This document shows, piece by piece, positions 4,101-13,100 of a stretch of 64,000 bases of DNA. Source of the DNA: Flaccisagitta enflata (Eukaryota); assembly GCA_965153355.1 (NCBI GenBank), contig OZ231126.1, positions 29,450,001 through 29,514,000 on the forward strand. The letters are read 5' to 3'. Position numbers and translations under genes: made by a program. Below the pieces are notes generated by a model, which was not told the DNA's origin, made no database searches, and was given only the letters and a program-made list of their open reading frames with translations. The number at the start of each line of letters is the position of its first letter. The stretch's first letter is position 1.

Positions 4101-7100
4101 CACACACACGCAGACACACACACACACACACGCAGACACACACACACACACGCACACACTTAAACGCGCGCACACTTAAATACGCACACACTCAAGCACG
4201 CCAACACTTAAGCACGCACACACTTAAGCACGCACACACTTAAACACATACACACAGTTAAACACACACACACATCCACACCCCAACCCCCGTGCCCCCA
4301 CACACAAACATGCACAAAAAGTATTTGATATGCTGGTTTTTCCACTTTTCAACTCGTTCACCAAGGGAAAAGCCTCCGAAAGAGTTGCGTGTCCGCAACT
4401 TAAAACTAACTCTCTTAGTGTAGTTGAAATAAGATGACAATATATCATTTATATAAGTCTCGCATGCAGGGTTCAATTCGAAAGTTGGGTGTAATTGTTA
4501 ACCATATAAGTTAGCTCTTTAGCATGATTGGTCGAGAGCCCAGCACCGGCAGACCCCCTCATGGCCTCAATGTTATACACACACAAAAAAAGAATCCTAT
4601 ACTGTAAAAAGCCGATTGGTGGCTTTGGCAGCTGCTCTGTCGGCTCGATTGGAGGTGTGGCTCATGTCGCCGTCATAAGTGATATGAAGACTGCGATACA
4701 TTTTCCTGTTCCTCCTTTTCCCCATCTCACATAAATCTTTGTATAACTAGTAGCAAACAACGAGCCAGTATCAAATAGCGATAGGGAAAAAAAGACCGAA
4801 ACCGTTGTGTTGGAATGAAATTTTTCTGACTTGCATTTTTTTAAACAACCAAATATGATTTCTACAACGGGTTTGACTGTTTAAATTCACTCTACGCTCG
4901 CAAAACATCATTCGTAGAAGTTAGACCTTTAATTTTTTTTCATTTCAATTAACAATTCTCCTGAAAAAAATGAGCGGTTCTCGGCTAAGCACCGTTCTGC
5001 GTTCGAGCGTCTCGCCATCGGCTGGCGATCGAAATCGACTATACTCAACGACTCCGAGCGTGAATGGATTCTTCAAGAAGCTCTTGTACGGCGATGGAGA
5101 TACGCACGCGGCACAGACGGAAGTAAAAACGGAGGAAAGCAAGGTTATATGGAAAACGAGGGAGAAAGAGGTCTTTTTCAAAAGATAAGGCTGGCGAAAA
5201 AGAAGATGTAATGAAAGAAAGTAGGACGGGATGAAGGAGTGAATGAATGAACCATTATGGAAACAAAGAAAGTAAGACATGGGCTTGAAGGAGCGGAAAG
5301 AAAAAAAGATACATAGGAAGATAGAAAGAGAGTAAGAAAGAAACAAGAAGAGAAAGTAAGAAAGAAAGAAAGAAAGTAAGAAAGAAAGAAAGAAAGAAAG
5401 AAAGAAAGAAAGAAAGAAAGAAAGAAAGAAAGAGAGAAAGAGAGAAAGAGAGAAAGAGAGAAAGAAAGAAAAAAAGTAAGTACGTAAGAAAGAGCTATTC
5501 AGAAAGACAGAGAAAAAAAAGAAAGAAACAAAACAGTAAGAAAAAAAGAGAAAGAAATAATACAGTAAGAATGAAACAGAAACAGAAAGAAATAAACAAA
5601 ACAGAAAGAAAGAACATGAAAGCAAGAACATGAAAGAAAGAGGATAGAAAGAAAGAAAGAAAGAAAGAAAGAAAGAAAGAACATGAAAGAAAGAAAGAAC
5701 ATGAAAGAAAGAAAGAAAGAAAGAACATGAAAGAAAGAAGAACATGAAAGAACATGAAAGAAAGAAGAACATGAAACGAAGAAAGAAAGAACATGAAAGA
5801 AAGAATGAAGGAAATAATAAAATGAGGAAAGAAAGAAAGAAAGAAAGAAAGAAAGAAAGAAAGAAAGAAAGAAAGAAAGAAAGAAAGAAAGAAAGAAGAA
5901 AAGTCGGGCAAGAAGAGGAAAAGAAAAAAAACAATGAATGAATTAAAGAAAGAAAACATGAATTCAGGTCCTAAACTTTTCGTTTCAATCATTGTCAAGG
6001 CGACAGACACTGTCGCCGCATCCAATAAGTCCGCCAACTCCACCGCCGCGCCGGCGTTGGGACCCTCAGCGTCTGCGGCTGCAGCAACACCCGCCGTTCG
6101 GACGCCGTCCGTCGCGCCCTCAACGTCCCGACGACCCACTGGAGCATCCAGCTCTTCTGCCGCACCTTCTAAAAGTACCATTTCCGGACTACAGCAAAGA
6201 CAACAGCAGCAGCAATGGAGACCGGCCATTGCGACTCGAGCTGCGGCAGCGCAGCAAAATACGCGCTTTGAGAGACCCGTTGGGGGATCGTCTATCGCCA
6301 GGCAGACGATCACGGTTGGTGTCATTATACTAAACTATAACAATAATTATAACAACTCATTAGTCAAGACAACAACGTTAATAGTAAGACCAACGACAAC
6401 AACAACAGCGCAGACTACAGCCATAACAAGTCAACAACAACGTCAATGACAACAACAACAACAACAACAACAACAACAACAACAACAACAACAACAACAA
6501 CAACAACAACAACAACAACAACAACAACAACAACAACGGGAAAAAAACGATTTTATCAATGGTAATCATGAAACCTTCAACATCATCAGCTTGACCATTA
6601 ACGACGACAACGAGCACAACAACAACAACAACAACAAAAGCGACAACAACAACAACAACAACAACAACAACAACAACAACAACAACAACAACAACAACAA
6701 CAACGACGACGACGACGACGACGACGACGACGACGACGACGACGACAAAAAATCGCAGAAAGTATAAAAAAATAACACGATTCGCAATGAAGAAATCTAT
6801 GTCCATCTTTCCAACGACAATTTTGCCCCCCACCTCATTTCCCCACAGCCTCCCGCAACTTCGTCATCGGCGGCGTCTCGTGGCGCTTCTCCGGCTTTTA
6901 ACGGCGCTCGTTCGCTTCCGACGCCGACTTCACGCGCTGCAGCAGCGGCGCCGCTTCGAGTGGCGGTGCAACGAGCTCGAATTGACGCGAGGAACGTGAC
7001 GCGGAAACCTGATGTAACCGCCGCAAATTCTCCTGCCGCAGCCGCCACCGCTTCCGCCGCACAGTCAGCCGCGGCGGCAGAAGCCCCCGTCATCCCGCAG

Positions 7101-10100: not shown

Positions 10101-13100
10101 CAAAGCCGATTTCCGTTGACGAGCAACTTAATGAATCATTTGCGACCGCATCCGTAGAGTCAGAGCCAAACGCCGTCACTGTGGAAGCGTTGGGTGAAGA
10201 GGAGGCGTTCGTCGGAGATGTTGAAATGGAGTCTGAGTTGATCAAACCGGAAGCTTCAGGAGATGCGCAAAATGAGCCAATGTTAGAGTCGATGGTAGAC
10301 TCGAAGGAAGAAGCTGCGCGTGTCGGCGTCTCAGCGCCTGTTTTAGGCGAAAGCGGTTTGTTCAATGACGAGTCTTTGAGCGAGTCAGTAGCGACTGAAG
10401 CAGTCGTCGCCACCGATACCGTAACGACCGACAATGTAGCAACCGAGGCAGATCAACAACAAGAATTACATAGTTTTGCTGGCGATGATTTGTCTTTTGC
10501 CACTCCTAAGGTGGATAATGAGGTCGAGGCGGTCGAAACGCTCATTTCCCAGCAGGCGTCAGAGGATGGAGGTGATTTCTTTAAATGCCTTTGTTTTTAG
10601 ATGCGTCCTCGCATCTATATAACAGGGTCTGTCGATCCGGCTTGTTGCATATGTTATTGTGTTTTATTGTGTGTGTGTGTGTGTGTGTGTGTGTGCGTGT
10701 GTTTGTGTTTGTGTTTGTGTGTGTTTGTGTGTGTGTTTGTGTTTGTTTGTGTGTTTATGTTTGTAATGTTCTCTTTAGTCTTTGTCTTATTAGATTGTCC
10801 AATCATTGATTCAAATATTTTCATTAGGATCATTTGAGGAAGGAGAGGTGGCCGCTCAGAATTTCGGGGTGGAAAATAAAGAGGTCAGTCATTGATTTGA
10901 ATATTTAGAATATGATGATTCATCATTTATACTTTACAAGGAGTAATTTAACGTCACAAAAACTCAAATAAGAATGCCTATCATGAAATTTCAGGTGTTA
11001 GACTGCGGAAGTGACAAATCGGAAGCTATGGAAGTCAAGAATACGATTGAAGAAACGGGAAGTCAGGTGAACATTGCATTAGTTCCCTTTGCGGCTTTGT
11101 CCTTGTTTTGTTTTTGTTGTTGTTTCACTATTCTTTTTTTGAGAACGCGGAAAACCAAAAAGATATCCTCCATACCCATATTCTCAGGGGAAACGAAATG
11201 TGAGTCAGAACAACGACAACGCTGATACAGGAAGTATCCAAGACAACAGCCTGGAAACCGGAAGTGCCAAAGACGTTGAAGCTTCTTCTGTCATGCAAAA
11301 GATCAGATCCTTTTTCAAACGATAAAAAAGCCTTCTAGGCTATATGCAGTTGCAGTTAACAAGTCTACGTGCTATGGCTACGTTTATTGTATAAAATGCG
11401 ATCCTTTGTATCTTTTTGGCTTGTATAGATTAAAAAGAGTCGCGAGACACAAATTTCGCGAGGAGGATGTTCGTTTTTATTCTTTTTTCAGCGCATTTGA
11501 TATTTTCAGCGAGGAAAAACTATCGCTTATGCTCGTTAGGCTGGCATGGGCGACAAAAACAAATTGGTACGGTTGGGAATATCGCAGAAATCGTCCACAG
11601 ATGTATGCTTATGCACTGCGGGGAAAACATCAACAAGAACAACAACAACGACAACATCAACAACAACGACAACGACAACAACGACAACAACGACAACAAC
11701 AACAACAACAACAACAACAACAACAACAACAACAACAACAACAACAACAACAACAACAACAACAACAACAACAACAACTACAACAACTACAACAACTACA
11801 ACAACTACAACAACAACAACAACAACAACAACAACAACTGAAATGAAATAAATATTAACGATAAAACCGCCTGAACTGAAACGAAAAAAATAATTATCAA
11901 CTTTCAACGAACACATGTTCGCGCGAGTCAGCGAAATACCGTTTACAAAAAACAAGACGTAGGAAGTTAGGTTGAGTGGTCACACATGAGTAAGGATTTT
12001 TTTACCAGAAAAGGTCCATAACTTCAATGGCGATGTAATGAGGTACGAAAAGCTACTCGATGAAATACAAAATCATAAGAGCAATGGTAACAAAAACTTT
12101 CAAAGGAAGTCCACATCAACGTTTCGTTATTCATCAGATCGAGATTACCAACGACGTGATGTTCTTATTGCCGATTATGGTGGCGGTGATGGTGGCTAAA
12201 GTGGTGGCTGACACCGTCACCCACTCTCTCTATCACGCTCAATTAGAAGTCAAGTGCGTCCCGTTTTTGGACGCCGAACCGGTCATCGTGCACGAAGAAG
12301 GCGACAAAATGTAAGACAAGATGCGTGCATCCGTATGTGTCCATACGTGTGTACGTGCGTGTTATCATTGTGTTTGTGTGCCTGCGTCTGTATTCGCGCC
12401 CTCCACTCATCTTCGCCATTGTCGTCTTCACCGTCAATATTGTACTAGAATGATTATAACCGACGTCTTCATCTGTATCATAATTTTTGTCGTGATCGTC
12501 TTCTTTGTTGTATTCATCATCATACTCAAAATCATCACGATCTGTTTGCTTCCTTCCTGTCCCCCATTGCAGCACAAATCTGGAGTTGCACAGCGTGGAG
12601 GAGGTGATGTCGTCACCCGCGGTGACGGTGGAGGTGGTAGAGTCGGTGGCGGACATGGCTCAATTGCTTATTGACCATCAACACGGAGGATTCCCAGTCG
12701 TTACGCGTTCGGATGAAACTGGCAAAAAAGTATTTTATGGACTCATTACGAGGTAAGCGTTGTTGTTGTTGTTGTTGTTGTTGTTGTTGTTGTTGTTGTT
12801 GTTGTTGTTGTTGTTGTTGTTGTTGTTGTTGTTGTTGGTGATTTTGTTGTTGTTCGTGATTTTGTTGTTCCTTTTGTCACTGAGCTTTTGTAACTGTTGA
12901 GGTAAAGGTTGTTTTGAGTGTCCCAATTGGAATGGACGTTGTTGTGGTTGTTGTTGTTGTTGTTGTTGTGGTTGTTGTTGTTGTTATTTTTGTTGTTTTT
13001 GTTGTTGTCGTTGCTGCTGTTGTTGTTGTAGTTGTTGTTGAATGTTGATGGGATCTCCTGTTTTTGTCTCATCAGGTTGGAATTGACGATGGTTTTGATG

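Follow-up and report, generated by a model that had tools for sequence, protein, structure and literature searches.

The window analysed here, a 64,000-nucleotide (nt) stretch of the forward strand of contig OZ231126.1 from Flaccisagitta enflata (assembly GCA_965153355.1, positions 29,450,001 to 29,514,000), contains part of a CLC-6/7-like gene. A second gene lies inside one intron of this gene. The segment 4787–11467 is very probably an independent RNA polymerase II transcription unit, located wholly inside the longest intron of the CLC-6/7-like gene and on the same strand. The nested unit would probably have its own TATA-type promoter (TATAA at 4742), with RNA from about 4787, and probably its own poly(A) signal (ATTAAA at 11429), with the RNA end at about 11467. 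It would yield at least two in-frame mRNAs, an 8-exon form encoding 1355 amino acids (aa) and a form using the splice 7328>10511 and encoding 431 aa. The host transcript, when made, would shed the entire nested unit as part of intron 4004–12137. A clash between the two genes may be avoided chiefly by differing activity levels, or by activity in different cells or stages. The sole hint of differing expression is that, in two marine metatranscriptomes, RNA of the nested gene is present and the bins holding CLC exons have a depth of 0.

Splicing, isoforms and putative transcript ends of the nested gene

A model of the nested gene was rebuilt from the sequence. It occupies 4970–11325 on the + strand and has 8 exons, with all introns bounded by GT..AG; the coding sequence (CDS) runs to 4068 nt, comprising 1355 codons and a stop, and its sole stop codon is the terminal one (Table 1). 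An earlier, sequence-only reading had described a complete, phase-consistent gene of 8 exons and 4068 nt on the same strand as the CLC gene, and the rebuilt model matches that description exactly. The seven internal acceptors that it placed within the host intron do lie there. Exon 5 falls within a stop-free stretch of 1008 codons (7574–10600), which is far beyond chance in DNA of about 42–50% GC. The phase-0 acceptors of the nested gene are those at 6000, 6849, 7574, 10511, 10995 and 11188.

The region 2800–12700 was compared with two marine metatranscriptomes from two studies (X7 and X8), with poly(A) RNA from the organism itself (X17, of which about 6% of the run was examined) and with marine metagenome DNA (X3). 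Six of the seven predicted junctions were recovered as GT..AG joints in both X7 and X8 (5143>6000, 6314>6849, 7328>7574, 10571>10828, 10883>10995 and 11066>11188). The seventh, 7856>8022, is represented in each run by two pieces of a single contig (X7 record 10, X8 record 15), in which the pieces at exon 4 extend from 7572 to 7854/7851 and the match resumes from 8022. Joint positions were adjusted for ambiguous letters, such that 5139>5996 cut by +4 corresponds to 5143>6000, 7326>7572 cut by +2 corresponds to 7328>7574, and 7326>10509 was likewise cut by +2. Splicing at all seven predicted junctions is confirmed in RNA from X7 and X8; a lack of spliced RNA at these positions had been named beforehand as a finding that would speak against the gene. 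Because the nested joints are all GT..AG on the + strand, the transcript strand is +. RNA depth over the nested gene ranges from 2.7 to 32.5 in X7 and X8. A variant with an in-frame 6-nt deletion at 6066, in exon 2, is present in X7, X8 and X3.

A second isoform is produced by the joint 7328>10511 (GT..AG), which leaves out exon 4 together with most of exon 5 (924 codons in all) and stays in frame to give a protein of 431 aa. Depth at the 7328 branch is 13 (X7) and 16.5 (X8) toward 10511, compared to 7.74 (X7) and 5.53 (X8) toward 7574. In both metatranscriptomes the short isoform equals or exceeds the long one in abundance. The side of the 7328>10511 joint is only 26 nt (30 with ambiguous letters), as expected of a junction-specific unitig, and would be weak if it stood alone. 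The same join is found in P0064, a 345-aa protein in the public collections that comes from a contig of 1421 nt. This record runs from the predicted methionine through exons 1, 2 and 3, continues from 10511 and then through exons 6–8, and ends at the predicted C-terminus. P0064 is identical to the model at 206 of 210 residues over residues 1–210, and at 128 of 135 over residues 297–323 joined to 1248–1355. Between two GCGAG direct repeats in exon 3, P0064 skips 258 nt (6987/6990 to 7244/7247) without losing the frame. The gap is either a GC..AG intron within the exon or a microhomology deletion allele, and it was not seen in the X7 or X8 contigs. Another public record, P0002 (283 aa), corresponds to model residues 1071–1355, encoded by exons 5–8, and has the same C-terminus; 268 of its 283 residues are identical to the model, from which it differs in length by 6 nt, in frame.

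The 5’ contigs are unspliced from 4787 (X7 record 9) or 4790 (X8 record 14) to 5139, and no joint connects them to a CLC exon. An independent transcription start site had been expected between 4700 and 4960, and contigs that reach upstream only to 4787/4790 and are never joined to a CLC exon fit this expectation. In keeping with the model, P0064 begins at the predicted ATG (4970) without any CLC sequence. At the 3’ end, ATTAAA at 11429–11434 lies 33 nt before the last RNA-covered base and is a putative cleavage signal; the next AATAAA downstream is at 11847. RNA depth is 0 across 11737–12700 in both X7 and X8. Before the main ATG (4970), the 5’ untranslated region (UTR) also holds two upstream open reading frames (ORFs), one of 4 codons at 4815 and one of 9 codons at 4855.

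The CLC host gene and its intron

The flanking gene on the + strand is CLC-6/7-like, and its sea star relative P0065 carries the NCBI name ‘chloride channel protein C-like’. The closest full-length proteins found were P0065 (75% identity over the 58-aa exon) and the annelid CLC protein P0066 (69%), and the best relatives of the two flanking exons with solved structures are CLC-7 and CLC-6. The 20 aa encoded by exon 3945–4003 align to residues 525–544 of human CLC-6 and 551–570 of human CLC-7, and the exon is identical to P0065 and P0066 over GAASFFGGVSRLTMSLTVIM. Exon 12138–12311 aligns to residues 545–593 of human CLC-6 and, starting at query residue 2, to human CLC-7 from residue 572. Since these alignments are contiguous across 4003/12138, the flanking CLC exons abut with no residue missing or doubled. 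In the case of P0066, a tblastn comparison shows identity directly across the join (SLTVIM|IEITNDV). The claim that the exons ending at 4003 and starting at 12138 join seamlessly therefore holds, residue for residue, against CLC-6, CLC-7, P0065 and P0066 by homology, and the intron described as 8.1 kb measures 8134 nt (4004–12137).

Nowhere else in the window are CLC exons so far apart, the other gaps between CLC matches reaching about 1.9 kb at most. No CLC-like match was found inside 4004–12137 by tblastn with P0065 and P0066 at E<=1, and both proteins are colinear with the window from 1186/1204 to 16213. The Pfam Voltage_CLC profile (PF00654) matches 1183–1392 with 28.8 bits (cut-off 24.8) over profile positions 156–205; further colinear pieces cover profile positions 221–270 on 3067–3258 and 322–346 of 346 on 12138–12311. 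A CBS domain (PF00571) scores 35.8 bits (cut-off 24) on 12577–12753, and a second, weak CBS piece near the C-terminus scores 13.8 bits, below the cut-off, on 16073–16393. P0065 and P0066 are colinear with both CBS regions. The CLC gene is already under way at the first position of the window, such that its N-terminal half, which bears the residues for ion binding and gating, lies outside; the first P0065 match is residue 324 at 1204. P0065 residues 386–457 have no match in the window. One or more CLC exons between 1392 and 3067 have therefore escaped tblastn, whether through divergence or small size.

The bins holding CLC exons 3662–3800, 3945–4003, 12138–12311 and 12577–12700 have an RNA depth of 0 in X7 and X8. 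The sequence-only reading had put forward expression of the two genes in different tissues, or strong exon silencing, and the zero depth here beside nested RNA is a hint at most. In X7, the bin 3131–3461 has a depth of 6.84, and a repeat lies in it as well (X3 depth 1088, with loose ends at 3346–3388), such that coverage of exon 3067–3258 is undecidable from this value.

DNA contigs of X3 hold the nested gene with its introns, over 4642–5204, 5950–6320 and 10766–11506. X3 depth on the nested-gene exons is 0.25–6.5, compared to 0.7–6.2 on the CLC flanks. The introns in DNA, together with this flank-like depth, indicate that the nested gene is intron-bearing and single-copy. A retrogene or a transposable-element ORF is ruled out by the seven introns (in RNA and in X3 DNA), the flank-like depth and the lack of transposable-element domains.

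The window consists of eukaryotic DNA with many microsatellites and a GC content of about 37–50%. Long microsatellites occupy introns 1, 2, 4 and 5 of the nested gene and the sequence just past its 3’ end: (GAAA)n of about 600 nt at 5296–5901, (CAA)n/(ACG)n at 6432–6746, (TG)n(GA)n at 7865–7949, (TG)n at 10667–10764 and (AAC)n at 11626–11838. Pieces of a high-copy repeat lie upstream of the gene and in its intron 5 (Table 1), and further copies are found at 1540–1850, 26473–26515 and 41300–41480. The repeat consists of a short GC-rich hairpin (GTTGCG..CGCAAC type) beside an (ACGG)n-like tract. A scan of the whole window with Rfam gave 0 matches, including at the interspersed repeat. X3 DNA joints at 4405>10591, 4405>10593 and 4405>10594 were considered as an allele lacking the block and were rejected, as their sides measure only 23–25 nt, they fall at a repeat with a bin depth of 52004, and one high-copy repeat supplies both ends.

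Table 1. Coordinates in the window of the nested gene, the flanking CLC exons and associated elements.
Feature	Position	Strand	Description
CLC exon ending ...SLTVIM	3945–4003	+	enters in phase 1, ends on a codon boundary
Host intron	4004–12137	+	8134 nt; donor GTTAGT, acceptor ...TTCATCAG; both sides phase 0
High-copy interspersed repeat piece	4330–4405	.	hairpin and (ACGG)n-type element upstream of nested gene; X3 bin depth 2100
TATAA	4742–4746	+	candidate core promoter, 45 nt upstream of first RNA-covered base; putative promoter role
5’ UTR, minimum extent	4787–4969	+	RNA contigs; two short upstream ORFs
Exon 1	4970–5143	+	58 codons from ATG (A at -3); model, RNA joint, P0064 starts MSGSRL
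Exon 2	6000–6314	+	105 codons, basic, Ser/Ala/Pro/Thr-rich; model, joints 5143>6000 and 6314>6849 in X7, X8
Exon 3	6849–7328	+	160 codons; donor at 7328 is the branch between long and short isoforms; model and RNA
Exon 4	7574–7856	+	283 nt, long isoform only; joint in X7, X8
Exon 5	8022–10571	+	2550 nt, acidic, Ala/Glu/Ser/Val-rich; in-frame alternative acceptor gives exon start 10511; model and RNA
Coding tandem repeat	8860–9096	+	period 24 nt, about 10 copies, 8-aa unit EDQPTSxA
Exon 5 tail, used by short isoform	10511–10571	+	joint 7328>10511 in X7, X8; P0064
Repeat piece of same family	10591–10633	.	43 nt, nested-gene intron 5; 331-nt bin has depth 52004 in X3
Exon 6	10828–10883	+	56 nt; joints 10571>10828 and 10883>10995 in X7, X8; P0002 and P0064 continuous through it
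Exon 7	10995–11066	+	72 nt; RNA joints; P0002, P0064
Exon 8 and stop codon	11188–11325	+	protein end ...MQKIRSFFKR; joint 11066>11188 in X7, X8; same C-terminal residues in P0002, P0064
3’ UTR, minimum extent	11326–11467	+	X8 record 18 reaches 11467
CLC exon starting IEITND...	12138–12311	+	end of Voltage_CLC domain, just ahead of CBS domains; begins with a full codon

The encoded protein

The nested protein is composed of 15% Ala, 14% Glu, 12% Ser and 10% Val. Residues 1–250 are rich in Ser, Ala, Thr and Pro and carry a net charge of +17, and the remainder is strongly negative. No hydrophobic segment of membrane-span strength was found in the protein. Translations of six exons gave 0 Pfam matches at the cut-off and two weak matches, of 9.3 and 22.2 bits. 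The stronger of these, at 22.2 bits compared to a cut-off of 30.9, concerns the C-terminal domain of phage T4 gp5; it lies on the tandem repeat and was rejected.

Searches with exon 5 (849 aa) likewise returned no family. None of the 7999 matches scored against 5.8 billion clusters, among proteins of 466–1486 aa, reached E<=0.001; the 276 pattern matches in JGI metagenome contigs gave 0 confirmed, and the ESM Atlas gave no usable match. A HMMER search of 1.84 billion representatives gave 63 matches, comprising 2 fragments at 96% identity and 61 on the tandem repeat only. These 61 of 63 were rejected as relatives, being confined to the EDQPTSxA repeat. As judged by these searches, the nested protein appears to belong to no known family, and it looks lineage-restricted.

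AlphaFold2 modelling of exon 5 gave a mean predicted local distance difference test (pLDDT) score of 36.8, with 736 of 849 residues below 50 and helices only at exon-5 residues 6–38 and 531–603, from a model built without an alignment, which lowers confidence regardless. The very acidic, Ala/Glu/Ser/Val-rich body that follows residues 1–250 is predicted to be almost wholly disordered. The predicted helical part encoded by 9596–9853 had no relative in the PDB, with one match at E=0.62. The amphipathic stretches were compared by eye with kinase-anchoring helices, gave no fit, and that assignment was dropped.

Variation was used to assess constraint. Among the 40 variants listed (94 more are unlisted), 39 are coding, of which 26 are non-synonymous and 13 synonymous; with 3086 and 979 sites, respectively, the per-site ratio of non-synonymous to synonymous polymorphism (pN/pS) is about 0.63, a value that rests on these 39 coding variants, with the 94 others outside it. 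None of the 39 creates a stop. Every length difference is in frame, including the 6 nt at 6066, the 6 nt in P0002 and the 258 nt in P0064. The nested sequence is read as translated and weakly constrained. As for function, one could guess at an acidic disordered scaffold or binding protein. The resemblance to acidic intrinsically disordered proteins lies in composition, charge pattern, a low-confidence model with two isolated helices and a short tandem repeat; it is a resemblance in kind only, and no family matches by sequence or profile.

Alternative readings and known nested genes

Several observations weigh against the interpretation of 4787–11467 as an independent nested gene. The host junction 4003>12138 is absent from the RNA of X7, X8 and X17, and this junction is placed by homology only. 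In X17, 982 reads matched 2800–12700, all of them only partly and 0 at >=99% alike, and nearly all of the depth falls in the bin holding the repeat at 10591–10633. As X17 has no credible reads on either gene, expression of the nested gene is shown only in environmental RNA. No listed X3 contig bridges 4004–4384 or 11506–12138, so that independent reads leave the placement of the block within the intron unconfirmed. Where the contigs stop is no proof of a capped start or of a poly(A) end, and the nested protein is known from DNA and RNA sequence alone. The alignment-free structure model and the small set of variants behind pN/pS count on the same side. X17 shares its organism and its study with the best DNA source, and the absence of both genes from it may reflect the tissue or stage sampled.

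One alternative denies that the block is a separate gene: it would supply the CLC gene with alternative exons, downstream or terminal, and the resulting CLC proteins would lack helix R as well as the CBS domains and would be fused to an acidic tail. Phase 0 applies both to the CLC donor at 4004 and to the nested acceptor at 6000, as was correctly stated before, and six nested acceptors share this phase and strand with the donor, so that in-frame chimeras are formally possible. However, no joint from 4003 to a nested acceptor is listed in X7 or X8 at a reporting share of 3%, a weak negative as CLC RNA is absent there. The 5’ contigs extend 183 nt unspliced upstream of exon 1, to 4787, the CLC bins have a depth of 0 where the nested exons reach 2.7–32.5, and P0064 starts at ATG 4970 and holds no CLC sequence, all of which make CLC exons an extremely unlikely identity for the block. 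It is also very unlikely that the block at 4.4–11.5 kb came from elsewhere in the genome and was joined into the CLC intron by the assembly via flanking microsatellites. The flanks are indeed microsatellite-rich, with (CA)n at 4051–4273 and (AAC)n at 11626–11838, X3 depth is 0 over 3462–4123, and neither flank is bridged by a listed contig. However, the CLC exons keep their strand, order, phase and abutment, such that a foreign block would need to have landed exactly in an intron. The intron minus the nested unit would be about 1.45 kb, like neighbouring introns, and X3 depth is alike on the block and its flanks; the coverage hole proves nothing.

A different objection accepts that the locus is transcribed and spliced but holds that the long ORF is not functional coding sequence, being a young or decaying ORF in what is effectively a non-coding RNA. 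The lack of relatives beyond fragments 95–96% identical, the low complexity (Ala, Glu, Ser and Val make up 51% of residues), the predicted disorder, the weak constraint indicated by pN/pS and the two upstream ORFs in the 5’ UTR are all compatible with it. Against this, the 4068-nt frame stays open over 8 exons, the alternative splice 7328>10511 preserves the frame, all length variants seen are in frame, none of the listed coding variants is a stop, and pN/pS is below 1, and we regard a non-coding transcript as unlikely. Somewhat less improbable, though still doubtful, is the proposal that the nested gene is young and lineage-restricted, arose in or was captured by a repeat-rich CLC intron, and that its strong transcription over about 6.7 kb represses or prematurely ends host CLC transcripts. 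This proposal draws on the lack of relatives, the pN/pS of about 0.63, the microsatellite in each larger intron, the low-complexity and weakly constrained largest exon, and the presence of nested RNA without CLC RNA in two metatranscriptomes. If it were true, CLC output would be off wherever the acidic protein is made.

Nesting on the same strand is well known and fairly common in animals; taken as an independent nested gene, the present case is solid but ordinary and opens no new question. In a Drosophila case from 1986, the nested gene and its host reportedly lie on opposite strands.

The sequence-only reading held that nested genes are more often antisense. A slight bias toward opposite orientation does exist in mouse and human, and the rarity of same-strand nesting was overstated, as Montibus et al. 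(2024, Genome Res, PMC11694760) describe same and opposite orientations of host/nested pairs in these species as ‘broadly similar’. The same study states that such pairs involve over a tenth of genes in mouse and human and that the nested gene tends to occupy a long intron. Like the same-strand pairs described there, the present gene is a complete gene with its own exons in one host intron and probably its own transcript ends. It differs in being a multi-exon, family-less gene with two isoforms, in a CLC host and a marine invertebrate-like genome, whereas tissue interplay was measured in the mouse and human pairs (PMC11694760). In the case of OMP, nested in an intron of CAPN5, cells are reported that express the nested gene but not the host (PMC6549253). 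The pattern hinted at here is similar, with nested RNA and no CLC RNA in two metatranscriptomes.

The host shares its Voltage_CLC and CBS domains with the CLC-6/CLC-7-type H+/Cl- exchangers and with invertebrate proteins named ‘chloride channel protein C-like’, and is known here from its C-terminal part. A narrow literature search turned up no published case of nesting within an intron of a CLC gene; one paper that came up there uses ‘nested’ of PCR primers. How the pre-mRNA of a host passes over seven good acceptors and a poly(A) signal could be studied at this locus. Added to this is an acidic protein, unannotated and without a family, which marine plankton RNA shows to be well expressed. 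In annotation it is advisable to keep the two genes unmerged, retain the inner one and record the short isoform.

Elsewhere in the window, long short-unit tandem arrays at 23349–24867 and 60976–61614 are open in several frames on both strands, with translations of the RPERADF/LSGLKSA type, and are probably satellite-like. On the + strand, 62264–63130 holds an open frame of 288 codons that is non-repetitive and protein-like, possibly an exon of another gene.

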